Notes under the pieces: model-generated
The model's database searches: none
What the model saw: the letters and a program-made list of their open reading frames with translations, nothing else
Told to the model about the DNA's origin: nothing
Shown: positions 2,893 to 31,607 of the stretch, piece after piece
Layout: each line of letters starts with the position of its first letter
Position numbering within the stretch: the first letter of the stretch is position 1
Position numbers and translations under genes: made by a program
NCBI RefSeq assembly: GCF_000406145.1
Contig: NZ_CM001976.1
Location: forward strand, 4,392,380-4,424,379
Source of the DNA: Dickeya dadantii NCPPB 898
Lineage (GTDB): Bacteria > Pseudomonadota > Gammaproteobacteria > Enterobacterales > Enterobacteriaceae
Direction: 5' to 3'
Length of the DNA: 32,000 nt

Positions 2893-3043
2893 TCTATCAG
2901 GCATTCGTCGTGACAGGCTCCCTTGCCGCCCGGCGGGAGTGCGGCGAATTTTTGTTTACTTCCGTTTTGTCCGACATCCTATGATCGCGGTCACTTTTCA
3001 ACCAGGGTGGCTCCATTACTCTCATTCAAGAGGTGTTAAGGGT

Positions 3044-4255
3044 ATGTTTCTTGAAGAACGCAGAAACAAGATTCTGGAATATCTGGATCAATACGATCGC
3101 GTCAGCGTGGAATATCTGGCCGCTATTTTCTCTGTCACCAGAGAAACCATACGCAGCGACCTGAACGCCCTGGCCCGGCAACGGCTGATTCAGCGTTGCC
3201 ACGGCGGCGCCGTTATTATTCGCCGCAGCCTGCAATCTCAGCTGATTACCGAAACCGGAAAAGATTTCGAGGTCCTGTTAAAGAAAATAAAAAATCAGGT
3301 CAGAAATAAAAGCGTAGGAAAAAAGGATAAAACCATGAAGGGTAAAGTCTGTATTCTTGGCTCGTTTAATGTGGATATTGTCGCCAGGGTCGCGCGTTTT
3401 CCCAAAGGCGGGGAATCGTTGCTGGCGCAAGGCAGCGCGCTGGGTCCGGGAGGGAAAGGCGCGAATCAGGCCATGGCCGCCAGCATGGCCGGCGCGAAAG
3501 TGCATTTCGTTTCCAAAGTCGGGAAAGATCAATTCAGCCATTTCGCTTACGAGCATTTATCAAAATCCGCCATTCATTCATTTAAATTATATCAGTCCGA
3601 CACGGAACCAACCGGCAACGCCATTATTTATGTCTCGCTACAGAATGGCGAAAATATGATTGCCATTTATTCCGGCGCCAATAAAACGCTGACCGACGAA
3701 GAAATTGCCGAAATTATGCCCGAGCTGGAAGACGCGGACGTATTACTGCTGCAAATGGAAAATAATTTCCCGGCCACGCTGAGCGCCATGAAACTGGCAA
3801 AGGCGCTCGACACGCAAATTATCCTCAACCCGGCCCCGTATTCCGACGATGTTTTATCCTGCCTCGATTATGTGGATATCATCACCCCGAATGAAACCGA
3901 AGCTTCATTGCTGTCCGGCATTGAGATCAACAATCTGGACAGCGCCAGACAAGCCGCGCAGAAAATCCACGCGCTTGGCGCCGCGCGGGTCATCATCACC
4001 ATGGGCGCCAACGGCGCACTGCTGTTCGACGGCCAGCAATTCCAGCACATCCCGGCCTTTCCCGCCGTCAGCGTGGATACCACCGGCGCCGGCGATGCCT
4101 TCAACGGCGCGTTCGCCGCCGCCGTAGCCGGCGGACAAAGCGTGGCGCAGGCCGCCACCTATGCCAATGCGTTCGCCTCTCTGGCGGTCGAACGGGAAGG
4201 CGCCGCCAATATGCCAACCCAGCAGCAGGTAACGAACCGGCTGGCGCAGCGCTGA
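3044..4255 (+). CDS. Fusion protein: N-terminal DeoR-type HTH (no DeoR sensor domain) + ribokinase/PfkB-family sugar kinase
   Basis: The start was chosen at ATG 3044 (SD AGAGGTG at 3029-3035); the track ORF begins earlier, at GTG 2939. The N-terminus MFLEERRNKILEYLDQYDRVSVEYLAAIFSVTRETIRSDLNALARQRLIQRCHGGA is a DeoR HTH. A Lys-rich linker follows, then a RbsK-like body: VCILGSFNVD, GPGGKGANQA, IITPNETEA (NxxE motif) and DTTGAGDAFNGAF (anion hole and catalytic Asp). Confidence 0.85.
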   Translation: MFLEERRNKILEYLDQYDRVSVEYLAAIFSVTRETIRSDLNALARQRLIQRCHGGAVIIRRSLQSQLITETGKDFEVLLKKIKNQVRNKSVGKKDKTMKGKVCILGSFNVDIVARVARFPKGGESLLAQGSALGPGGKGANQAMAASMAGAKVHFVSKVGKDQFSHFAYEHLSKSAIHSFKLYQSDTEPTGNAIIYVSLQNGENMIAIYSGANKTLTDEEIAEIMPELEDADVLLLQMENNFPATLSAMKLAKALDTQIILNPAPYSDDVLSCLDYVDIITPNETEASLLSGIEINNLDSARQAAQKIHALGAARVIITMGANGALLFDGQQFQHIPAFPAVSVDTTGAGDAFNGAFAAAVAGGQSVAQAATYANAFASLAVEREGAANMPTQQQVTNRLAQR

Positions 4256-4312
4256 TTTACCCACACCTTATTTTAAACACCCCGAACAGATTGTCGGGCA
4301 AGGAGAAAAATA

Positions 4313-5239
4313 ATGAAGAGCATCGAAGGTATCGTTCCCGTCATGCTGACCCCGTTTAACACCAGAAACGACATCGACTACCCCGGTCTGGCGAAGCTGA
4401 TCGACTGGTATCTGGACAAGGGGGTGGACGCGCTGTTCGCCGTCTGCCAGTCCAGTGAAATGCTGTTTCTCAGCCTGCAGGAGCGTGTGGATCTGGCGCG
4501 TTTCGTGGTGGAGCGCGTCGCGGGGCGCATACCGGTGATCGCGTCCGGCCACATCAGCGACGCTATCGACGACCAGATTGCCGAACTGACAGCGATGGCG
4601 GAAACCGGCATCGACGCGCTGGTGCTGGTCACCAATCATCTGGACCCGAAAAACCAAGGTTCAGCGACGTTTTTCAGCACGCTGGACACCTTGCTGGCGG
4701 CGCTGCCGGCAACGCTGCCGCTCGGCCTGTACGAATGTCCGGCGCCGTATCGCCGCCTGCTGACGGATGACGAACTGATGCACTGCGCCAACAGCGGCCG
4801 CTTCGTGGTGCTCAAAGACGTGAGCTGCGACCTGCCAACGGTAGAACGCCGGGTCAAACTCACCGCCGGCACGCCGCTGAATATCATCAACGCCAACGCC
4901 GCCATCGCTTTTCCGGCGATGCGCGCCGGCTCCAAAGGCTTTAGCGGCGTGTTCACCAACTTCCACCCGGAGTTGTATCAGTGGCTGTATTCGCACAGCC
5001 AGCAGCAGCCGGAACTGGCGCAGGAACTGGCGACCTTTCTGTCGCTGGCGGCGGTCACCGAAACGCTGGGTTACCCCAAGAACGCCAAAATCTACCATCA
5101 GCGCCTCGGCACCTTTGAACACGATAACTGTCGGGTGACCAAAGACAACGTACTGGAGAAATTCTGGGCCTTGACGGTGATCCTGGATCAGATTCATCAG
5201 GGAACGGAACACTACCAGAAAAAAATTCAGCAACGATAA
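4313..5239 (+). CDS. DapA/NanA-family class I (Schiff-base) aldolase/lyase, divergent member
   Basis: The 308-aa ORF has SD AAGGAG upstream. It begins GIVPVMLTPF and has a CQSSEM segment in place of the usual GTTGE. LYECPAPY corresponds to the YNxP tyrosine region, and VVLKDVS corresponds to the G(I/V)K(D/E)xS catalytic lysine. Confidence 0.75.
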   Translation: MKSIEGIVPVMLTPFNTRNDIDYPGLAKLIDWYLDKGVDALFAVCQSSEMLFLSLQERVDLARFVVERVAGRIPVIASGHISDAIDDQIAELTAMAETGIDALVLVTNHLDPKNQGSATFFSTLDTLLAALPATLPLGLYECPAPYRRLLTDDELMHCANSGRFVVLKDVSCDLPTVERRVKLTAGTPLNIINANAAIAFPAMRAGSKGFSGVFTNFHPELYQWLYSHSQQQPELAQELATFLSLAAVTETLGYPKNAKIYHQRLGTFEHDNCRVTKDNVLEKFWALTVILDQIHQGTEHYQKKIQQR

Positions 5240-5263
5240 CGTCACTGCCGTCAGGTATATTGT

Positions 5264-5302
5264 CCGGCGAGTGGAAATAATACCGTTATTTCCGCCCGCC
5301 GG
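5264..5302 (+). other. Intra-operon stem-loop between the aldolase and yhcH-like genes
   Basis: Outer stem CCGGCG/CGCCGG and inner stem GGAAATAA/TTATTTCC flank a 5-nt loop. No U-tract follows. It could be an mRNA processing or stability element or a partial attenuator. Confidence 0.3.
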
Positions 5303-5342
5303 CTAATGGCATGCTCTTGTCATTCACCAGGAATAACCCGCT

Positions 5343-5822
5343 ATGATTATTTGCGATCAACAAGATTGGGGTCGGGAGAAATACGCGTTACATCCGATTA
5401 TTCATCAGGCTATCGATTATATTTCCACGACCGACTTCACTGCTATGCCGACCGGGAAATACGACATTATTCCCGGAAAAATGTTCTGCCTATTACAGGA
5501 ATTCACGACAGAGCCTGCGGAGGAAAGGCTGGCGGAATCACATTTCCAGTTTGTCGACATCCAATATTTATTACAGGGGGAAGAAACCATCGGCGTCGCA
5601 CGCGGCAGCCGCAACAATACCGTGATTGAAGACAAAAGCGAGCACCACGATATTGTCTTTTATCGTGATATTCAAAACGAAAGTTTTATTTCATTAACAC
5701 CAGGCATGTTTGCCGTTTTCTTTCCGGAAGATCTGCACCGGCCATGCTGTCAAAGCCAGGGCCAGTCTTTTATTCGCAAAGCGGTTATTAAAATTCACAT
5801 CAGTTTATTTACGGATTGCTGA
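5343..5822 (+). CDS. YhcH/YjgK/YiaL (DUF386, EbgC-like) family protein
   Basis: The 159-aa ORF has AGGA 10 nt upstream. The C-terminal PGMFAVFFPEDLHRPCC parallels E. coli YhcH PGMFAVFMPGEPHKPGC, and ESHFQFVDIQYLLQGEE parallels ELHEQYIDIQLLLNGEE. Confidence 0.8.
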   Translation: MIICDQQDWGREKYALHPIIHQAIDYISTTDFTAMPTGKYDIIPGKMFCLLQEFTTEPAEERLAESHFQFVDIQYLLQGEETIGVARGSRNNTVIEDKSEHHDIVFYRDIQNESFISLTPGMFAVFFPEDLHRPCCQSQGQSFIRKAVIKIHISLFTDC

Positions 5823-5827
5823 TTATT

Positions 5828-7123
5828 ATGAAAAACGCCACCTCTACCTTACAAGATAATACGGTTATCACCACCTCGCCGATTACCCGCTTACGTTGGG
5901 GAATCATTTTCATTCTGTTAATGGCGGCAGTCATCAATTACCTGGACCGCGCCAACTTAAGTATCGCCAATACCACCATCGCCAAAGAGTTCGGTTTCAG
6001 CGCTACCCAGATGGGCATGTTGCTTTCCGCCTTCCTGTGGCCTTACGCGCTCGCCAATCTGCCGGCCGGCTGGCTGGTGGACAAACTGGGGCCGAAAAAA
6101 ATGTTTTCCGGCGCGGTGGGGCTGTGGTCAACCTTTACCGTGCTGGCCGGGTTCATCAACGGCTATTCCATGTTCTATGGATTGCGTATGTTGCTGGGTA
6201 TCGCCGAGTCGCCCTTTTTCACCTCGGGCATTAAAATCACCCATCGCTGGTTTTCCGCCCGCGAACGCGGCCTGCCGACCGCCATCATCAATACCGGTTC
6301 GCAGATCGCCAACGCCGTTGCGCCGCCGATTCTGACCGTGCTGCTGCTGACGCTGGGCTGGCGCGGCATGTTCATCGCCATCGGTCTGGCGGGCATACCG
6401 CTGCTGCTGGTCTGGCTGAAGTTTTATCGCGAACCGACCGCGGCCGAAGAGCGCGACATTCACGTCGAGGCAGCGGCGGCGACATCCAGCGACGAGACGG
6501 CCAAAAGCCAGCCAGGCTGGGGCGCGCTGTTCCGGCATAAAACCACCTGGTTCATGATTCTGGGTAACTTCTCCATCATGTTTACCATCTGGGTTTATCT
6601 GACCTGGCTGCCGGGCTATCTGGAAAAATCCCTCGGCTTCACGCTGAAACAAACCGGTTGGATTGCCTCCATCCCGTTCCTCGCCGGCATTCTCGGCGTG
6701 CTGTGCGGCGGGGCGATTTCCGATCGTCTGATTCGCCGCGGCGTCAACACCATCACCGCCCGTAAAATCCCCATCGTAATGGGAGCGGCGCTGGCAGCCT
6801 GCTTTGTGGCGCCGATTCCGTTCGTCAGCAACACCTCACTGTCCATTCTGCTGTTATCGCTGGGCTATTTCTGCTCGCAGTTGCCCTCCGGGGTCATCTG
6901 GACGCTGGCGACCGACATTGCGCCCAAAGAGCAGGTCGCGTCACTCGGCGCTATTCAGAACTTCGGCGGCTTTCTGGGGGCGGCCAGCGCGCCCATCATC
7001 ACCGGCGTGATTCTGGATGCCACCGGGGTGTTCACCAATGTTTTCTTTCTGGGTGCGGGCTTGCTGATGCTCGGGGCGTTGAGCTACGGCCTGTTCGTCA
7101 AAAAGCCGCTTATTGAAAAATAA
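5828..7123 (+). CDS. MFS transporter, anion:cation symporter (ACS; DgoT/ExuT/GudP-like) type, probable acidic-sugar importer
   Basis: The ATG at 5828 lies 5 nt after the yhcH-like stop; the track start at 5816 is TTG. The protein has about 12 hydrophobic segments and the INYLDRANLSIAN motif typical of ACS-family sugar-acid permeases. Confidence 0.8.
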   Translation: MKNATSTLQDNTVITTSPITRLRWGIIFILLMAAVINYLDRANLSIANTTIAKEFGFSATQMGMLLSAFLWPYALANLPAGWLVDKLGPKKMFSGAVGLWSTFTVLAGFINGYSMFYGLRMLLGIAESPFFTSGIKITHRWFSARERGLPTAIINTGSQIANAVAPPILTVLLLTLGWRGMFIAIGLAGIPLLLVWLKFYREPTAAEERDIHVEAAAATSSDETAKSQPGWGALFRHKTTWFMILGNFSIMFTIWVYLTWLPGYLEKSLGFTLKQTGWIASIPFLAGILGVLCGGAISDRLIRRGVNTITARKIPIVMGAALAACFVAPIPFVSNTSLSILLLSLGYFCSQLPSGVIWTLATDIAPKEQVASLGAIQNFGGFLGAASAPIITGVILDATGVFTNVFFLGAGLLMLGALSYGLFVKKPLIEK

Positions 7124-7131
7124 CCATCCGC

Positions 7132-7167
7132 TACGACGAAGGGTGACTTACGGCGCCCTTCGTCGTA
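7132..7167 (+). terminator. Perfect 12-bp stem hairpin just after the MFS gene
   Basis: TACGACGAAGGG (7132-7143) pairs with CCCTTCGTCGTA (7156-7167) around a 12-nt loop. No clear U-tract follows, so intrinsic termination is uncertain. Confidence 0.4.
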
Positions 7168-7233
7168 CAGAACCTACGCTGCATTATCAGTAACCAACCT
7201 TAACGGTCAGCCCAGCCCATAAAAAGTCAAACT

Positions 7234-7251
7234 ATTGATTTATAAATCAAT
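7234..7251. promoter_or_regulatory. Perfect 18-bp palindrome ATTGATTTATAAATCAAT in the AT-rich region upstream of the ydiV-like gene
   Basis: Read directly from the sequence; it is its own reverse complement. This is a candidate operator with no assigned binding factor. Confidence 0.35.
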
Positions 7252-7369
7252 AATGCGTTTTACTTCATCATCTCAACATTCCTCAGCATAAATACTTTAT
7301 TCACAGTATTACTTTTATCGATCGGTTTTAGGAAAATGATAGATTATATAAATTAAAATAGGGTTAATG

Positions 7370-7384
7370 ATCGTTTTAAACGAT
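7370..7384. promoter_or_regulatory. Perfect inverted repeat ATCGTTT-N1-AAACGAT 60-90 nt upstream of the ydiV-like start
   Basis: Read directly from the sequence. Its position suggests a promoter-proximal operator. Confidence 0.3.
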
Positions 7385-7458
7385 TTTCATATTGGTTACA
7401 TAAGCGCTAGATTAATTTGTAGAAAATAACAGCACTAATAGCGGTGATTATTTATGCA

Positions 7459-8160
7459 ATGAATGAACTATTCGTGATACGCCTGATTCCGGTATTGACG
7501 AAAGAAAAAAGAATTTTTGCTTTCGAGCTCTTCCTAAACCAGAGAATATCCATCAATCCTACCAACAAGGGAAACACAGGTCATTCATCATGGATAACGA
7601 ATAAATTTCAGCTCTTTCTTATCAAATTAAACTATATCAGGGAGACATCCACACTTTCATCGTCCCCTTCCAGAAAAATAGTCATCGGGTTGGATCGGGA
7701 TCTTTTGGTTTTTATTCTAAATGATAAAAACATAAAGGAAGAGATCGCCTCTATAAAAGAGGTGAGGTTTATTATTGACGCCAGCATAGACATTATCAAC
7801 AACCGTAATGACTATCGACTAATAAAAGAATTATCTGCGATATCAAAAATATGGCTAAACGACTTCGGCACCGGTAACACCAGTGTCACTTCATTAAAAA
7901 TGAGGACATTTGAGCATATTAAAATCAACAGAGATTTCATGTTGCGATACGGGAATATGAATTTCTTTCGTAAAATGCTAGACGATATCAATACATGGAG
8001 CGACGGCGCAATATTGACCGGCATAGACAGTGACGAACTGCGTCGCCAATTCTCCGCCACGATGTTTTACGGCATGCAGGGAGAATTATGGAGCACTATT
8101 ATTCTGACTATAGGCGACCATGCGTTGCGCACCCCCTTGCCTGGTCTCATTCGACCATAA
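7459..8160 (+). CDS. Degenerate (catalytically dead) EAL-like domain protein, YdiV/RflP-like
   Basis: The ORF is AT-rich. An alternative GTG start lies at 7444. The EAL-fold landmarks are present but mutated: ELF replaces EAL, LNDFGTGNTS replaces DDFGTGYS, IKINRDF replaces KxD, LTGIDSDE replaces EGVE, and GMQGELW retains the QG. Its size (~233 aa) and its LNDFGTGNTS segment resemble the LGNLGAGNST of E. coli YdiV. Confidence 0.7.
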   Translation: MNELFVIRLIPVLTKEKRIFAFELFLNQRISINPTNKGNTGHSSWITNKFQLFLIKLNYIRETSTLSSSPSRKIVIGLDRDLLVFILNDKNIKEEIASIKEVRFIIDASIDIINNRNDYRLIKELSAISKIWLNDFGTGNTSVTSLKMRTFEHIKINRDFMLRYGNMNFFRKMLDDINTWSDGAILTGIDSDELRRQFSATMFYGMQGELWSTIILTIGDHALRTPLPGLIRP

Positions 8161-8191
8161 TCACACCATATTCAGGGAGCACGCGGGTTAC

Positions 8192-8950
8192 ATGAATATC
8201 ACCGCAGCCGAACTCGAAGCGGCTATCAGGGAAAATCGTGGGTTGGCGCTCAGCTACCAGCCTATTCTAAATGTTGGCACTCGACGAATCGACAGCGCTG
8301 AGGCGCTGCTGCGCTGGCGTCATCACGAGCAGGGGCTCGTCTCTCCGGTGCTGATCATTCCACTGGCCGAACAGGCCGGGCTGATGAACAAACTGGGAGA
8401 CTGGGTACTCACCGAAGTCTGTCGACAGCACAGGGAAATCCCGAATTGCAGCCTTTCAATCAATGTTTCCCCTCAGCAGCTGGAGCAGGAAGGGTTTGCC
8501 GATAACATCGCCATGACGCTGGAGCACGCCCGTTGCAACGGTGGAAAAATTGAAATCGAAATCACCGAAAACCATCAACTGAATAATACCAACCACGTCA
8601 GAAAGAATATTCGCCAATTACGCGATCTGGGTATTACCGTCGCTCTGGATGATTTTGGATCAGGCTACGCAGACATTCATTATCTTTACCAGTATGAATT
8701 CGACAAGGTGAAAATGGATAGAAGCCTCATCGCCCAGCTCGGTAAAAACAAAAAGAACGATCTACTGGTTGAATCGTTAATCCGGGTTTTGCACAAGATG
8801 GATATTTCCGTTACGGCGGAAGGCGTGGAAAGCGAAGCGCAACTGCGCATGCTGGAAACATTGCAGTGCGATCGTATACAGGGCTTTATCATTTCCAACC
8901 CCATCGAGGCCAGTCGGTTGACAACATTTATACAGGCTTATCGCCGGTAA
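8192..8950 (+). CDS. Stand-alone EAL-domain c-di-GMP phosphodiesterase (all catalytic motifs intact)
   Basis: The start was chosen at ATG 8192 (AGGGAG at 8174-8179); the track start at 8120 overlaps the upstream gene. Motifs present: YQPI, EALLRW, SINVS, EIEITE, DDFGSGY, KMDRS, EGVES, QGF. Confidence 0.85.
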   Translation: MNITAAELEAAIRENRGLALSYQPILNVGTRRIDSAEALLRWRHHEQGLVSPVLIIPLAEQAGLMNKLGDWVLTEVCRQHREIPNCSLSINVSPQQLEQEGFADNIAMTLEHARCNGGKIEIEITENHQLNNTNHVRKNIRQLRDLGITVALDDFGSGYADIHYLYQYEFDKVKMDRSLIAQLGKNKKNDLLVESLIRVLHKMDISVTAEGVESEAQLRMLETLQCDRIQGFIISNPIEASRLTTFIQAYRR

Positions 8951-9086
8951 TATAACCGCGCCTAATAATTCCAGTTTCAGCGAAACGGCGACTGGAAATA
9001 TGGCGGGAATAAAAGCGGAAACCACGCTCTGAAAATACCGCATGACTTTAATTTTATCGCACCACTTTTATCGCACCGGGGAAAAT

Positions 9087-9395
9087 ATGTATATACCAGC
9101 AGAGGCGACACTCAGAGACGTCATCGATTCATTGCTTAGCGAGTTGACTATCATCAACTATCTTTGTTTGGCCGCCAGCATGAACCAGTATGTGCGTAAG
9201 CAGAACATACGGACGCTAAACTCGCAGGAATTCCGTTTCCTGACCACCCGGCTGAAACGTATAAAAATCGACGTAAACCAACTGTCTGAGCTGAATGATG
9301 ACGACAAGGCGCATCTGCGCAAAGCATGTCATGACATTATCCAGTTCATCGAAGACCGCCAGCCAGAGCGTTCTTCCACCGCCGTTACCGGTTAA
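9087..9395 (+). CDS. Hypothetical small protein (~102 aa), predicted helical, no family recognised
   Basis: The ORF track lists 9042-9395. The internal ATG at 9087 has a better SD (GGGGA, 5-nt spacing). The product has no TM segment, no signal peptide and no motif I recognise. It sits at the right edge of the insertion, convergent with glpE. Confidence 0.45.
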   Translation: MYIPAEATLRDVIDSLLSELTIINYLCLAASMNQYVRKQNIRTLNSQEFRFLTTRLKRIKIDVNQLSELNDDDKAHLRKACHDIIQFIEDRQPERSSTAVTG

Positions 9396-9444
9396 TGGCG
9401 GCACGCTAACCAACAACGAAGGCGCGCGCCGTACCGGTTCACCG

Positions 9445-9765
9445 TCATCCCGCCGCGACATCCTGCGGAAAACGTGTTTGCCAGGCGTCGAAACCGCCAT
9501 CCACGCTGTATACGGCTTCAAAACCAAGGCTTAACAGGTAATTCGCCGCGTTGCGGCTGCTGATGCCGTGATAGCACATCACCATCACCGGCTGCTCAAA
9601 ATCGGCGCCGCGTACAAAATCCGCCAGGGTTTCGTTGGTCAGATGGGTCGAGCCGGGCACATGTGCGGCGCCGAAGCTCTGCGGATCGCGAATATCCACC
9701 AGCACATTGCCTTGCTGCCAGCGCTGATACGCCTGTTCAATATCGATTGCCTCGAACTGCTCCAT
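9445..9765 (-). CDS. glpE: Thiosulfate sulfurtransferase (rhodanese) GlpE
   Basis: [17 protein letters not shown]...[13 protein letters not shown]...[30 protein letters not shown] matches E. coli GlpE, including the active-site CYHG.SS loop. The start was trimmed from the track ORF (9846) to the MEQF methionine by homology. Confidence 0.9.
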
Positions 9766-10020
9766 TGCCTGCCTCATGTTTCTTAATGAATGGTGGTTAT
9801 TATCGAATGGTGTGCCTTGCACTGCATTGCGCGCATTGTAACCCACTCACCGCGCCGATAGACCGGATAAACCACAGGGATATAGGGGATTACAGGCCAA
9901 ACATCACCGGGAAAACCCCGTTCCAGCCGTACCAAAGCGGTTATCTTTAAGTAAATCAGGCGCGAAACTGTTAGCTGCATCACGCGTAAATGTTTTTAAT
10001 TGGTTAACGCTTGGCTAACA

Positions 10021-10150
10021 TGTTTGTTTTCGATTAATATCGTGAGCGAAAACGAACATTATGGCTTTTGGCGAAAGTGTTGCTTTTGGCAAACAAAAAT
10101 GTGGCTTTGGGCAAAATTGTCGCTTTTAACGAATATGACTGCTTTTGACG
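10021..10150 (+). promoter_or_regulatory. glpD control region: GlpR-type operator TGAGCGAAAACGAACAT plus five ~20-bp periodic GCTTT(T/G)G repeats
   Basis: TGAGCGAAAACGAACAT occupies 10043-10059. GCTTTTG-type cores start at 10064, 10082, 10104, 10122 and 10141, spaced 18-22 bp. Several lie within short dyads such as TTTTG-N5-CAAAA. The array runs up to the glpD SD (GGAGGA, 10155-10160). E. coli glpD is known to carry tandem GlpR operators. Confidence 0.6.
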
Positions 10151-10166
10151 TGGCGGAGGAGAAAAC

Positions 10167-11666
10167 GTGGAAACCAAAGATCTGATCGTGATCGGCGGAG
10201 GCATTAACGGTACCGGCATAGCGGCGGATGCCGCCGGGCGCGGACTGTCCGTTCTGTTGCTGGAAGCGCAGGATTTGGCCTGCGCCACCTCTTCCGCCAG
10301 CTCAAAACTGATTCATGGCGGCCTGCGCTACCTGGAACACTATGAGTTCCGGCTGGTGGGGGAAGCGCTGTCCGAACGCGAAGTACTGCTGAAAATGGCG
10401 CCGCACATCATTTTTCCGATGCGTTTTCGCCTGCCGCACCAGCCGCATCTGCGTCCGGCCTGGATGATTCGCGCCGGTTTGTTCATGTACGACCATCTGG
10501 GCAAACGCGTCAGCCTGCCGCCCAGCCACGGGCTGCGATTCGGCCGCGAATCGGTGCTGAAACCAGAACTGACGCGCGGTTTCGAATATTCCGACTGCTG
10601 GGTGGACGATGCCCGCCTGGTGGTGCTGAACGCGCAGGAAGTGGTGCGCCGCGGCGGCGAGGTGAAAACGCGCATGACCGTCACCCGCGCCCGCCGCGAA
10701 AACGGCCTGTGGGTGGTGGAAGCCGAAGATGCCCTGAGCGGCGAGACCCATCGCTGGCAGGCGAAAGGGCTGGTCAACGCCACCGGCCCGTGGGTACGCC
10801 AGTTCTTTGACGACAGTCTGGCGCTGCCGTCGCCGTACGGCATCCGGCTGATCAAAGGCAGCCATATCGTGGTTCCGCGCGTGCATCAGGAAGAGCAGGC
10901 CTACATTCTGCAGAATAAAGACCACCGCATCGTGTTTGTGATTCCGTGGCAGGATGAGTTTTCCATCATCGGCACCACCGATGTGGAGTACCACGGCGAT
11001 CCGCATCAGGTGAAGATTGACGACAACGAAATTCGTTATCTGCTGGACGTATACAACGATCACTTCAAAAAACAGCTGACGCGCGACGACATTGTCTGGA
11101 CCTACTCAGGCGTGCGCCCGCTGTGCGACGACGAATCGGATTCGCCGCAGGCCATCACCCGCGATTATACGCTGTCGGTGGCGGATGAAAGCGGTAAAGC
11201 GCCGCTGCTGTCGGTGTTCGGCGGCAAGCTGACCACCTACCGGAAACTGGCGGAACACGCCATGGATAAGCTGGCGAAGTACTACCCGCAAGCGGGCCAG
11301 GCCTGGACCAACCGCGCCATCCTGCCCGGCGGCGATATCAGCGGCAGCCGCGAAGATTACGCCGCAACCTTGCGCCGCCGCTACAACCTGCCGGAAGCGC
11401 TGGCGCGTCGCTACAGCCGCACTTACGGCACCCAGAGCGAGAAAATACTCGGTAACGCGCAGGCGCTGAGCGATCTGGGTGAACATTTCGGCCATAACCT
11501 GTACGAAGCCGAGTTACGTTATCTGGTAGAACATGAGTGGGTTGTCACGCTGGCAGACGCTATCTGGCGCCGCACCAAGCTCGGCATGTGGCTGGACGAC
11601 GCCCAGCAGCAGCGTATTAGTGAATGGCTGGCGGACTACCGCAGCCAGTTAGCCAAGGCCGGTTAA
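10167..11666 (+). CDS. glpD: Aerobic (FAD-dependent) sn-glycerol-3-phosphate dehydrogenase
   Basis: The 499-aa ORF starts at a GTG. METKDLIVIGGGINGTGIAADAAGRGLSVLLLEAQDLACATSSASSKLIHGGLRYLEHYEFRLV is nearly identical to the E. coli GlpD N-terminus, and the proteins are colinear throughout. Confidence 0.96.
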   Translation: METKDLIVIGGGINGTGIAADAAGRGLSVLLLEAQDLACATSSASSKLIHGGLRYLEHYEFRLVGEALSEREVLLKMAPHIIFPMRFRLPHQPHLRPAWMIRAGLFMYDHLGKRVSLPPSHGLRFGRESVLKPELTRGFEYSDCWVDDARLVVLNAQEVVRRGGEVKTRMTVTRARRENGLWVVEAEDALSGETHRWQAKGLVNATGPWVRQFFDDSLALPSPYGIRLIKGSHIVVPRVHQEEQAYILQNKDHRIVFVIPWQDEFSIIGTTDVEYHGDPHQVKIDDNEIRYLLDVYNDHFKKQLTRDDIVWTYSGVRPLCDDESDSPQAITRDYTLSVADESGKAPLLSVFGGKLTTYRKLAEHAMDKLAKYYPQAGQAWTNRAILPGGDISGSREDYAATLRRRYNLPEALARRYSRTYGTQSEKILGNAQALSDLGEHFGHNLYEAELRYLVEHEWVVTLADAIWRRTKLGMWLDDAQQQRISEWLADYRSQLAKAG

Positions 11667-29135: not shown

Positions 29136-30134
29136 CTAGACGCTCTCTCCCACCTGCAGGGTAAAGCCGACGTCCACGCTGGCCGTCGGCAACGTTTCCC
29201 CATGCAAACGCGCCAGCAGTTGCGCGGCGCCGACTTCGCCAATGCGCTTACGCGGCGTCAGTACGCTGGTCAGCCGCGGCACCGTAGTCTGGCCGATATC
29301 GTGACCGTGGAAACCGGCGATGCCCATCTGTTCGGGAACGCGCAACCCTTGCCGCTGGCATTCGAACATGGCGCCGATAGCCAGGTCATCGTTGGTGCAG
29401 AACAGGCTGTCCACCTGCGGGTATTCCGCCTGCGCCCGGCGCAACAGTTCGCCGCCCAGCGTATAGGACGACGGGCTTTCGCTCATCACGCTGTAACTGG
29501 CAAGACCGGCTTCGGCCATCGCCTGGGCGTAGCCTTGCTGTTTCATTAGCGTTCGTTCGTCCTGACGCGCGCCAAGGTAGACCACATGGCGACGGCCGCG
29601 CGCGATCATGTAACGCGTCATCTGGCGCGCGGCATCCACGTTATCGAACCCTACCGCCATATCAAGACAGGGCGACACGGAATCCATCAACTCCACCACC
29701 GGGATCCCGGCCACGGCGATCATCTGGCGGGTACGGGCGGTGTGATTGCGCTCGGCGAGGATCAGTCCGTCAATGTTGTAGGCCAGCAATGACATCAAAC
29801 GTCGCTCTTCCATTTCCGGCTGATAACCGTAATGCGCCAGCATGGTTTGATATCCCTGCGCTTCCGCCACTTTTTCGATGCCGCGCAACACCTCGGCGAA
29901 TACCTGGTTGGTGAGCGACGGCAGCAGTACGCCGATGGCCCGGCTGGTGGAATTGGCGAGAATGTGCGGCGTTCGGTTGGGAATGTACCCTAGTTCATCC
30001 AGTACGGCGGCGATTTTTCCCCTCAGCGCCGCGGACACCTGCTCGGGGTTGCGCAAATAGCGGCTGACCGTCATTTTGGTCACCCCGACTCGGTCGGCGA
30101 CATCCTGAAGAACCGGCCTTTTTTTCTTGATCAT
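29136..30134 (-). CDS. gntR: LacI-family gluconate utilisation repressor
   Basis: The 332-aa ORF begins MIKKKRPVLQDVADRVGVTKMTVSRYLRNPEQVSAALRGKIAAVLDELGYIPNR.P..L.N.TSRAIGVLLPSLTNQVFAEVLRGIE, nearly identical to E. coli GntR. Confidence 0.95.
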   Translation of the reverse strand: MIKKKRPVLQDVADRVGVTKMTVSRYLRNPEQVSAALRGKIAAVLDELGYIPNRTPHILANSTSRAIGVLLPSLTNQVFAEVLRGIEKVAEAQGYQTMLAHYGYQPEMEERRLMSLLAYNIDGLILAERNHTARTRQMIAVAGIPVVELMDSVSPCLDMAVGFDNVDAARQMTRYMIARGRRHVVYLGARQDERTLMKQQGYAQAMAEAGLASYSVMSESPSSYTLGGELLRRAQAEYPQVDSLFCTNDDLAIGAMFECQRQGLRVPEQMGIAGFHGHDIGQTTVPRLTSVLTPRKRIGEVGAAQLLARLHGETLPTASVDVGFTLQVGESV

Positions 30135-30314
30135 CCGTTGACATCCCCGTGGCTGAAAACACCGATTGTACTAAAGAAATGGTTAGCAGAATATGTACTT
30201 GAACACAGGTTATAAAATCGGACAGGGTACAGTCGCGCAAATAATACACGTTGACATTATTTATATTTTTATTGTTTGCTGATTATTAATTATAAATAAC
30301 AACCAATAGGAATA

Positions 30315-30438
30315 TATACCCTAAATAATTCGAGTTACAGGACAACAGGCTCGCGTGTTGAACAACATCACGCGTTGGCCCAGGGATGGGCCGAGTAATA
30401 AAGCCAACGCACCTGCAACGTGAAGTATGACGGCTATA
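30315..30438. repeat. Full-length ERIC/IRU-type intergenic repeat (~124 nt imperfect palindrome)
   Basis: The left end is TATACCCTAAATAATTCGAGTTACAGG and the right end is CCTGCAACGTGAAGTATGACGGCTATA. The ends are imperfect inverted copies of each other. Both match my recollection of the ERIC consensus ends (..CCTGCAACTCGAATTATTTAGGGTATA / GCAACTTGAAGTATGACGGGTATA). Confidence 0.7.
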
Positions 30439-30791
30439 TCGCCAATAAATTGGATTTTTATATTAATAAGAAAATAGGCAATGAATAATTTTTATTATAA
30501 GTAGCTTCACATATTGATGTTACATTCTTATTCATGCAGTAAAGCAAGCGGGTGGAAATGGAAACAACCGTATTTTTATATCGGCCATTTGATGACATCG
30601 ACCGCGATTATCATCACGGATATCGCCAGAATAACGATGATGGCCTCGACCCGGAACCGTTTTAATACCATCACCTCGCCCAGTTATGTGTTTATGGCTA
30701 AACCCGCCATGTCAGTCCTGTCGCATTTGGGCACATTTGCAGGCAAACGTTGTTGCACAGCACAAAATCATGACATTCAGGAGCAATTAGT

Positions 30792-31607
30792 ATGACGACT
30801 ATTCCAACATTTGGATCGTACACGGTGGCGGATCCAAACACAGAACAGAGCTGGCGAGTAACGCACAGCACGACGGAACAACCAGGCGATAATAATGGGG
30901 CTGTCGCGGACGACGTAAAAATTGACCGTCAGGATGTCAATATCAGCGCAGAAGCTCTCGGTAAATATCAGGCATATATTGAAGCGCGCAAAGCGGGTGA
31001 TGCTACCTCTACTCAGTTGACTATCTCGGAAGGAACAGCGATTGACGTTCCTGATGCGCTCAGCGAAGAAGAGCTTGCCGAGTTGATGAAGCCGACTGAT
31101 ACCTGGACCGAGCGGATGAAAATAGTGGACCAGGAGACACTCAACCTGCGTTCGGTGTCTTCTCAAATTGAGTCGACTTATATGTCTTTCCTGGAACAGC
31201 TTGGCAAAGATAATCCGGATTTAAAGGGAGCGACTTTCGGTTTCAGCGTGAGTAAGTACAACAGGATCGTGGTCACCGGAGCAGAAGGGCTGAGCCAGGA
31301 GCAGATTCAGCGGCTGGAACGGGCGCTTAATTCATCCCGCGAGCTGGTGGATCAGGCGAATAAACTGGCCGATACCCAAATCGCGCTCTTCGAGGCTGAA
31401 AGTCCTAACGCCGTAATCGCCTTTAACCGGGACAACTACGCCCAAACCATCGATATCGGCGCAGAACTCCTGTCAAGAAATCGCGCTCGTTACGCCGCTC
31501 GGGACGGCTCAGCGAATGATGTTCATCAGAAGAACTGGGACAACAACTGGCGGCAGCAGCTGGCGCGTAAAGGCGTCCGAATTAGCAATGAGGGTGTAGA
31601 AGCATAA
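30792..31607 (+). CDS. Hypothetical acidic, Gln/Asn-rich soluble protein (271 aa), no family recognised
   Basis: A strong SD (AGGAG at 30778-30782) lies 9 nt before the ATG. The long ORF sits in a lower-GC context. The product has no TM segment or signal peptide, and its N-terminus is Ser/Thr-rich (MTTIPTFGSYTVADPNTEQSW). Confidence 0.6.
   Translation: MTTIPTFGSYTVADPNTEQSWRVTHSTTEQPGDNNGAVADDVKIDRQDVNISAEALGKYQAYIEARKAGDATSTQLTISEGTAIDVPDALSEEELAELMKPTDTWTERMKIVDQETLNLRSVSSQIESTYMSFLEQLGKDNPDLKGATFGFSVSKYNRIVVTGAEGLSQEQIQRLERALNSSRELVDQANKLADTQIALFEAESPNAVIAFNRDNYAQTIDIGAELLSRNRARYAARDGSANDVHQKNWDNNWRQQLARKGVRISNEGVEA

Follow-up and report, generated by a model that had tools for sequence, protein, structure and literature searches.

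What does a protein of the EAL fold that has lost its active site do when its gene lies directly upstream of one for an apparently intact EAL phosphodiesterase? The question is raised by an operon in the stretch of DNA analysed here (the window), which comprises 32,000 nucleotides (nt) of Dickeya dadantii NCPPB 898 (contig NZ_CM001976.1, positions 4,392,380 to 4,424,379 of the forward strand). The window genome is D. dadantii-like, and orthologues of the operon genes were compared in D. dadantii 3937, D. solani and D. fangzhongdai. Positions 7370–9440 of the window form a three-gene operon, orthologous to Dda3937_00339-00338-00337 of strain 3937. Its first gene, open reading frame 1 (ORF1), is a real gene under purifying selection, and its sequence places the product among the EAL-like pseudoenzymes of YdiV/STM1697 type, as a new and highly diverged member. 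Our preferred answer, which we hold tentatively and with somewhat less than even confidence, is that ORF1 is a non-enzymatic protein-binding regulator, co-produced with an ORF2 enzyme that would lower cyclic di-GMP (c-di-GMP), and that FlhD4C2 is its most likely target. The genes of the operon are as follows, in window positions.

7459..8160, forward strand: ORF1, apparently catalytically dead stand-alone EAL-like protein of 233 amino acids (aa), orthologue of Dda3937_00339
7444, forward strand: alternative GTG start of ORF1, giving 238 aa with the same stop at 8160
8161..8191, forward strand: ORF1–ORF2 spacer of 31 nt, with a GGGAG Shine–Dalgarno-like element at 8175–8179, as read from the sequence
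8192..8950, forward strand: ORF2, predicted canonical stand-alone EAL c-di-GMP phosphodiesterase of 252 aa, orthologue of Dda3937_00338
9087..9395 (alternative start 9042), forward strand: ORF3, third operon gene, encoding an orphan protein of 102 aa that is predicted to be helical; orthologue of Dda3937_00337

A sequence-only reading of this DNA had delimited the first two frames, from GTG 7444 to 8160 and from ATG 8192 to 8950 with a 31-nt gap, and both exist as it described. It had taken them for a two-gene unit; ORF1 and ORF2 are indeed joined, but the third gene, orphan ORF3, had been missed. ORF1 is 96% identical to Dda3937_00339, which is annotated as a ‘hypothetical protein’, and the flanks are near-identical to those of strain 3937, with 99.8% identity for the upstream major facilitator superfamily (MFS) protein and a synonymous divergence (dS) of 0.022 for glpD.

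The motif substitutions that had been read from ORF1 (ELF, NDFG, KIN and TGID) are all correct, and further losses accompany them at the Arg of ExLxR, the metal-binding Asn and both Glu of ExxE. Position by position, Asn stands at the Arg of ExLxR, Gly at the metal-binding Asn, Ile and Ala at the two Glu of ExxE, Asn at the first Asp of DDFG, Asn also at the Asp of KxD, and Thr and Asp at the two Glu of EGVE. ORF1 thus keeps 4 of the 12 canonical catalytic positions in the family alignment (2 of 12 in the D. fangzhongdai orthologue), and its catalytic site is more degenerate than that of YdiV or STM1697. Because nearly all metal-binding, catalytic and c-di-GMP phosphate-binding residues are gone, enzymatic activity and canonical c-di-GMP binding by ORF1 appear very unlikely. 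The same losses bear on the idea that ORF1 acts in the manner of FimX or LapD, binding c-di-GMP or the product pGpG and relaying its level. Degenerate EAL receptors of c-di-GMP are an established class, the EAL domains of FimX and LapD are among the PDB matches of the ORF1 model, and the gene adjoins one for a c-di-GMP hydrolase. However, the Arg of ExLxR, the Asn, both ExxE Glu, the first DDFG Asp and both EGVE Glu are lost, the Glu of ‘EAL’ itself is replaced by Asp in two orthologues (D. fangzhongdai among them), and neither YdiV nor STM1697 binds c-di-GMP (PMC5622320). We consider a sensor of this kind very improbable.

A protein so eroded could also be a functionless relic, decaying while it is carried along with ORF2. 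The lost catalytic residues, the AT-rich composition and a Pfam EAL score below the gathering threshold (28.9 bits, E 9e-7, against 31.3, and over the C-terminal half only) would all fit decay. Against it, ORF1 orthologues are intact in D. dadantii 3937 (96% identity), D. solani (90%) and D. fangzhongdai (73%), with no frameshift or stop, and the ratio of nonsynonymous to synonymous divergence (dN/dS) is 0.145 against D. fangzhongdai, at a dS of 1.19, and 0.109 against 3937. Similar values are found for ORF2 (0.167 and 0.138) and ORF3 (0.19). Together with a confident structural model and published transcription in 3937, where ORF1 is the first gene of a validated transcription unit, these data establish ORF1 as a real gene. 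The sequence-only reading had named a decayed pseudogene or an unexpressed frame as the outcomes that would overturn it; low dN/dS, intact frames in three species and transcription in 3937 speak against both, and a relic strikes us as extremely improbable.

ORF1 is predicted to adopt the EAL TIM-barrel fold. Its AlphaFold2 model reaches a pLDDT of 83.7 and a pTM of 0.81 with 23 family sequences as input, YdiV-like relatives among them, which biases the model towards that fold. Foldseek returned 97 PDB matches to this model at E ≤ 1e-3, and 50 of the 50 matches listed are EAL or EAL-like; the best are YdiV–FlhD (4es4), STM1697–FlhD (5hxg) and YdiV (3tlq), with TM-scores of 0.72–0.83, against about 0.6 for active EALs. 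YdiV (1.8e-5) and STM1697 (3.7e-5) also rank first when the PDB is searched with the single ORF1 sequence. A profile of ORF1 and 22 relatives matches STM1697 (6.9e-44) and YdiV (6.9e-38) over their full length and active EALs at 3.5e-13 or weaker; this profile is dominated by the relatives, the direct ORF1 match being only 1.8e-5. On the PdeH equivalog model NF008617, ORF1 scores 46.7 bits, far below the cut-off of 190, and is as weak as E. coli YdiV (47.2), with STM1697 at 78.4; NCBIfam holds no YdiV model.

When 1.84 billion representative proteins were searched exhaustively with phmmer, no more than 48 relatives of ORF1 came up at E ≤ 1e-3, all of them stand-alone and about 200–300 aa long. 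The nearest non-Dickeya relatives are 24–28% identical, the best outside the Dickeya cluster at 28% (E 4.7e-17), and the named ones all belong to Enterobacterales (Pantoea, Paramixta, Prodigiosinella, Brenneria, Gibbsiella, Sodalis, Yokenella, Enterobacter and a Klebsiella plasmid). These nearest relatives are PdeH-like stand-alone EALs, most of which keep 10–12 of the 12 catalytic positions; since most look intact, the degeneracy of ORF1 arose independently. These comparisons place ORF1 in the PdeH/YdiV/STM1697 superfamily, whose members are small stand-alone EAL and EAL-like proteins.

Two characterized members allow a closer comparison. STM1697 of Salmonella Typhimurium (5hxg) is, like ORF1, a stand-alone EAL-like protein of about 230 aa without catalytic residues; it is the best profile match to the ORF1 family (6.9e-44; Foldseek TM-scores 0.75/0.83), and it too occurs as a divergent extra EAL-like paralogue beside a YdiV-type protein of the same genome. 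Both Salmonella proteins, divergent as they are, serve as anti-FlhD4C2 factors (PMC5622320; PMC10100727), and a YdiV-like protein, W909_11910, is found in D. zeae (PMC5113947). Unlike STM1697, to which it is 18% identical, ORF1 sits on a separate branch, has also lost the Asn and the KxD Asp, and lies in an operon with an active-looking EAL gene and an orphan gene. YdiV/RflP (STM1344; E. coli YdiV 3tlq, 4es4) shares the size and the predicted fold of ORF1. It differs in genomic context, and its alignments to ORF1, which end near residue 219–225, show no counterpart to the conserved, disordered tail that ORF1 carries at residues 220–233.

The tail (DHALRTPLPGLIRP, 233-aa numbering; window 8118–8160) is almost invariant across species and GC-rich, and the model predicts disorder there (pLDDT < 50). 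The segment may serve as a short linear motif or degradation signal, or may be constrained by ORF2 translation initiation. A separate observation concerns the stretch 7800–8400, which runs from the 3′ half of ORF1 across the junction into the 5′ end of ORF2: it differs from 3937 at 54 positions in 600 bp, compared with about 1% elsewhere in 4400–11600, and looks like a recombination tract or an allelic replacement.

Which surface of ORF1 is under constraint? Residues 151–190 (FEHIKINRDFMLRYGNMNFFRKMLDDINTWSDGAILTGID, 233-aa numbering) are the most conserved, with 36 of 40 invariant among orthologues compared with 68% overall, and this segment aligns with the FlhD-binding helices of YdiV and STM1697. 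Its strong conservation argues for a protein–protein interface at this site but does not specify the partner.

The FlhD contacts of both relatives have been described (PMC5622320). STM1697 uses V115, L116, L136, V147, F160, K167, L172, L173, K175, H176 and Y180, of which F160, L172, L173 and H176 were confirmed by mutagenesis, and the key YdiV residues are F155, F168, F181 and A184 (PMC5622320). The equivalent ORF1 residues, read from HMMER alignments in the 238-aa numbering, are given below.

STM1697 F160, centre of the FlhD interface: ORF1 F165, kept
STM1697 L173: ORF1 M178, conservative
STM1697 Y180: ORF1 W185, conservative
STM1697 K167: ORF1 M172, not kept
STM1697 L172: ORF1 K177, not kept
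STM1697 K175: ORF1 D180, charge reversed
STM1697 H176: ORF1 D181, charge reversed
YdiV F168: ORF1 F165, kept
YdiV F181: ORF1 F174, kept
YdiV F155: ORF1 K152, not kept
YdiV A184: ORF1 K177, not kept

The contact positions are therefore partly kept, and the two relatives reach the same FlhD surface with residues that differ between them. In the mechanism that we tentatively favour, ORF1 would work as YdiV/RflP and STM1697 do, binding a partner protein through the helices that follow the KxD strand, and the most likely target would be FlhD4C2, the flagellar and virulence master regulator. ORF2, translated from the same mRNA, would lower c-di-GMP. The net effect would be a low-c-di-GMP state combined with direct post-translational control of a transcription factor. 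In Dickeya, type III secretion and pectate lyase production are promoted when c-di-GMP is low; in this plant pathogen, the operon would favour c-di-GMP-repressed virulence and control flagellar gene expression independently, a reading that draws on what is established for Dickeya and Salmonella. Transcription would start from a sigma-70-type promoter, probably governed by a regulator that binds a conserved palindrome at about −42.

Several observations weigh against this proposal. ORF1 had been called YdiV-like, which holds for its best sequence and structure matches (YdiV and STM1697) but not for orthology: it is only 18–19% identical to either protein, and in a neighbour-joining tree the Dickeya ORF1 clade forms a separate long branch, with YdiV beside P0146 and STM1697 clustering with P0151, P0157, P0158 and P0163. 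ORF1 thus appears to be a Dickeya-only lineage rather than an orthologue of YdiV or STM1697, a weak placement given a star-like tree without bootstrap support. Since its degeneracy arose independently, its binding partner need not be the one that YdiV and STM1697 share, and the resemblance of the model is tempered by the bias of its input alignment. Within the interface, the positions of STM1697 K167 and L172 and of YdiV F155 and A184 are not kept, and the charge reversals at K175 and H176 fall at residues that touch acidic FlhD side chains. The conserved segment 151–190 is also part of the canonical EAL dimer interface, so its conservation fits ORF2 as a partner equally well. Upstream of ORF1, no match to a FliA-type (flagellar class III) promoter was found. 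Finally, a motility repressor and a phosphodiesterase usually push motility in opposite directions.

The second gene looks enzymatically competent. The Pfam EAL domain (PF00563) scores 236 bits on ORF2 against a gathering score of 31.3 and spans profile positions 3–236 of 236. As the sequence-only reading had held, every catalytic motif is retained: all 12 catalytic, metal-binding and substrate positions are canonical (ExLxR, N, ExxE, DDFG, KxD, EGVE and QG), and the alignment to the closest solved structure, the MorA EAL domain (1.6e-44), agrees on these residues. Loop 6 reads DFGSGYAD, where the usual form is DFG(T/A)GYSS. By sequence, ORF2 carries all the residues for Mg2+/Mn2+-dependent hydrolysis of c-di-GMP to pGpG. 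Like PdeH (YhjH; EcpC in Dickeya), it is a single-domain EAL with all catalytic residues, but it falls outside the PdeH clade: close homologues occur only in Dickeya, and the next best are EAL domains of about 40% identity, many of them from GGDEF-EAL proteins, in unrelated bacteria. A PADLOC search for defence systems returned nothing for ORF1 or ORF2.

ORF1 and ORF2 had been regarded as a tandem pair. They are adjacent EAL-fold genes, but at 22% identity over 102 residues (E 3e-4) and with nearest relatives in different EAL clades they are not tandem duplicates; the low identity and the different relatives indicate that the pair was assembled by juxtaposition. This origin bears on the heterodimer that the sequence-only reading had suggested: ORF1 would have no outside target and would pair with ORF2 through the EAL dimer interface, switching or localizing its phosphodiesterase activity. 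The genes are neighbours wherever they occur, share a transcript and have been lost as a pair, and none of the four ORF1 relatives examined elsewhere (0/4) is paired with a second EAL, so the dead/live pairing is specific to this cassette. The most conserved surface of ORF1 lies, moreover, in a region that forms EAL dimer contacts. Proteins from different clades would, however, share no ancestral homodimer interface, and the characterized structural neighbours of ORF1 bind FlhD rather than EAL domains. Heteromeric contacts have been documented for degenerate GGDEF domains in E. coli, but that study covered pairs of diguanylate cyclases with phosphodiesterases and not EAL with EAL (PMC5635695), and our literature searches turned up no heteromer of an EAL with an EAL-like protein. 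CdgI, a degenerate GGDEF protein from the same study, embodies the same concept of a dead paralogue that may regulate active enzymes of its own fold via heteromerization, in a different domain family (PMC5635695). On balance, we judge a pure ORF1–ORF2 heterodimer unlikely.

A broader version of physical coupling, which we consider quite doubtful, would make the operon a self-contained module in which ORF1 is bound to ORF2 and perhaps to ORF3. In one form ORF1 may gate c-di-GMP hydrolysis; in another it may tether the phosphodiesterase to FlhD4C2 and so link local c-di-GMP removal to the shut-off of flagellin, a plant immune elicitor. Such a module would be the first complex of an EAL-like pseudoenzyme with an EAL enzyme and, if real, a ‘stealth virulence’ switch that only the lineage of D. 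dadantii, D. solani and D. fangzhongdai possesses.

The third gene and the neighbourhoods of ORF1 relatives raise the possibility that ORF1 binds another regulator or ORF3 itself, and that the cassette controls a Dickeya-specific trait such as adhesion or the envelope, not flagella. The partial conservation of the FlhD contacts leaves room for this, and E. coli YdiV has a second target in Fur, on which it acts together with SlyD (PMC7515728). ORF3 is co-inherited and under purifying selection, and ORF1 relatives adjoin adhesin, autotransporter, exopolysaccharide-export and fimbrial loci. No positive evidence singles out any particular partner, however, and the four-helix AlphaFold2 model of ORF3 is of low confidence (pLDDT 61) and finds no fold match, Foldseek returning nothing with E < 0.9. 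A partner of this kind is, in our view, a minority possibility. Outside Dickeya, ORF3 has no homologues; its product measures 102 aa in the window, 91 aa in D. fangzhongdai and 107 aa in D. solani, and no match above noise was found in Pfam, NCBIfam, PHROGs or PADLOC; we infer that ORF3 is an accessory protein of the operon.

Chromosomal relatives of ORF1 often lie directly upstream of adhesin, autotransporter, BapA-like or Wza/Wzc exopolysaccharide loci, which hints that members of the family commonly act as local regulators tied to surface structures.

The three genes are transcribed together. Co-transcription of ORF1 and ORF2, which had been proposed from their spacing, is experimentally validated for the 3937 orthologues: the published transcript map assigns Dda3937_00339, 00338 and 00337 to transcription unit (TU) 1867 and grades their co-transcription as ‘validated, validated’ (PMC9239193 supplementary file 1). 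This unit has its transcription start site (TSS) at 4483792, its transcript end at 4485813 and internal ends at 4484610 and 4485389 (PMC9239193). We carried these positions over to the window by a collinear, gap-free alignment at constant offset.

~7419: TSS (4483792 in 3937)
~8237: internal transcript end (4484610 in 3937)
8959..9005, forward strand: hairpin between ORF2 and ORF3, with a minimum free energy of −26.7 kcal/mol and a z score of −3.4 for 8945–9030
~9016: internal transcript end (4485389 in 3937)
9396..9444, forward strand: 3′ end of the operon, abutting the convergent glpE stop at 9445
~9440: transcript end (4485813 in 3937)

The internal end at ~9016 falls directly after the hairpin at 8959–9005, which is likely a partial terminator or a processing site. 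Terminator prediction found no terminator-like site in the ORF1–ORF2 spacer (8161–8191), which is 31–33 nt long in D. solani and D. fangzhongdai, and the 3′ segment 9396–9444 folds no better than shuffled sequence. Gene order is conserved across all three species. The locus tags Dda3937_00337, 00338 and 00339 do not occur in searchable main texts, and no functional study was found in the searchable literature.

For ORF1, the in-frame ATG at 7459 is more likely to be the start than GTG 7444, because the D. fangzhongdai orthologue begins there and the mapped TSS leaves a leader of only 25 nt before the GTG. The D. solani orthologue is annotated from a still later GTG, and the start is thus ambiguous within 30 nt. 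An upstream ATG at 8120 would give ORF2 a 24-residue extension over the ORF1 tail; we rejected it as coding and take 8192 as the start, since the added residues vary even among D. dadantii strains, in contrast to the invariant ORF1 tail that the same DNA encodes in the other frame, and since ORF2 is annotated with 252 aa in D. fangzhongdai and D. solani.

How might the operon be regulated? Its promoter was placed from the published 3937 TSS, and the hexamers were read from the sequence.

7370..7384, either strand: perfect 7-1-7 inverted repeat ATCGTTT-T-AAACGAT, centred ~42 bp upstream of the TSS
7384..7419, forward strand: promoter, with −35-like TTTTCA at 7384–7389, an 18-nt spacer, −10-like TAGATT at 7408–7413 and the TSS at ~7419

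A scan with a generic sigma-70 consensus found no forward-strand promoter that reached threshold. The −42 palindrome is identical in D. dadantii, D. solani and D. fangzhongdai and is the sole exact match in the window, where two other sites have three mismatches; it is a candidate operator or activator site. The region 7370–7458 is 86–92% identical to D. fangzhongdai and 97–100% identical to D. solani, whereas the proportion of synonymous differences (pS) in ORF1 against D. fangzhongdai is 0.60. Promoter and leader are thus far better conserved than synonymous sites, which indicates strong constraint. No Rfam family, including c-di-GMP riboswitches, was found in the region at E ≤ 1, bar a chance microRNA match on an upstream hairpin, and the leader folds no better than shuffled sequence. 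As to the regulator, a GlpR operator was rejected by eye, the spacing between the CG cores being different. The palindrome resembles the core of the PecS consensus (TCGTATATTACGA), which is a tentative lead only.

Two other symmetric elements lie further upstream. A perfect 20-bp palindrome, with TATTGATTTA and TAAATCAATA as its halves, occupies 7233–7252, ~177 bp upstream of the TSS, and only one half (TTGAT) is conserved in D. fangzhongdai. At 7132–7167, directly after the MFS stop codon, a perfect 12-bp stem (TACGACGAAGGG / CCCTTCGTCGTA) is probably the terminator of the upstream sugar-acid operon; it gave the one weak, spurious Rfam match (mir-5881).

Where did the cassette come from? It sits between glpG and glpE and is confined to the lineage of D. 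dadantii, D. solani and D. fangzhongdai. The D. fangzhongdai locus reads glpR-glpG, ORF1-ORF2-ORF3, glpE, glpD; in D. dadantii and D. solani an additional block (window 2939–7123) separates glpG from ORF1 and encodes a DeoR-PfkB regulator–kinase fusion, a DHDPS-family protein, a YhcH/DUF386 protein and the MFS transporter. In Serratia, Ewingella and Symbiopectobacterium, glpE has MFS, YhcH and DHDPS genes within a few kb, the MFS gene directly beside it, and this block is probably an older resident of the site than the cassette. D. fangzhongdai and D. undicola have none of it between glpG and glpE, and the junction seems to be a recurrent site of insertion and deletion.

None of ORF1, ORF2 and ORF3 occurs in 80 glpE loci (0/80) from one D. 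undicola genome and other genera, Pectobacterium, Brenneria, Lonsdalea, Serratia and Rahnella among them. The glpE–glpG spacer of D. undicola, 499 bp long (L008 8322–8820), lacks ORF1, ORF2 and most of ORF3 and retains ~70 nt of the region that precedes ORF1 (79% identity) together with ~45 nt from the 3′ end of ORF3 (86% identity). These remnants indicate that the cassette was present in an ancestor and was later deleted.

The sequence-only reading had seen an AT-rich block and had proposed a horizontal origin. The block holds for ORF1 (40% GC) and its upstream region (35%) but not for ORF2 (50%) or ORF3 (48.5%), the window as a whole having 56.6%. The atypical composition and the narrow, patchy distribution fit horizontal acquisition, as had been suggested, and no mobility gene or flanking repeat was seen at the cassette. 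Silencing by H-NS had been proposed as well, and the AT content makes H-NS binding a plausible conjecture. The ORF1 family appears to be mobile, as its members are common on enterobacterial plasmids (362 PLSDB records) and match a phage protein family (phrog_32988, 7.7e-12).

Against D. fangzhongdai, the dS of the cassette (7444–9395) is 0.9–1.2, three to five times that of the flanking glpE (0.36) and glpD (0.22); weaker codon bias, more rapid evolution or a separate history may lie behind this. Elsewhere in the window, a 271-aa frame without Pfam match (30792–31607, forward strand) lies in another low-GC stretch (GC 0.445 for 30001–31000).

Dickeya virulence, including type III secretion, pectate lyases, motility and biofilm, is strongly controlled by c-di-GMP and FlhDC, and published work on c-di-GMP in this genus has centred on EcpC, EGcpB and a few cyclases. 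To these the operon adds an active-looking phosphodiesterase, a very divergent EAL-like pseudoenzyme and an orphan partner, in a form that is lineage-specific and selectively maintained. Each component is of a known class, the genes are already annotated publicly and the transcription unit is mapped, which makes the finding a useful lead rather than a surprise; what is unusual is the operonic pairing of a dead EAL-like protein with an active-looking EAL and an orphan. If ORF1 binds ORF2, pseudoenzyme control of an EAL phosphodiesterase would be established. If its target is FlhD4C2, this would be a case of a plant pathogen gaining a second anti-FlhDC factor, just as Salmonella gained STM1697.

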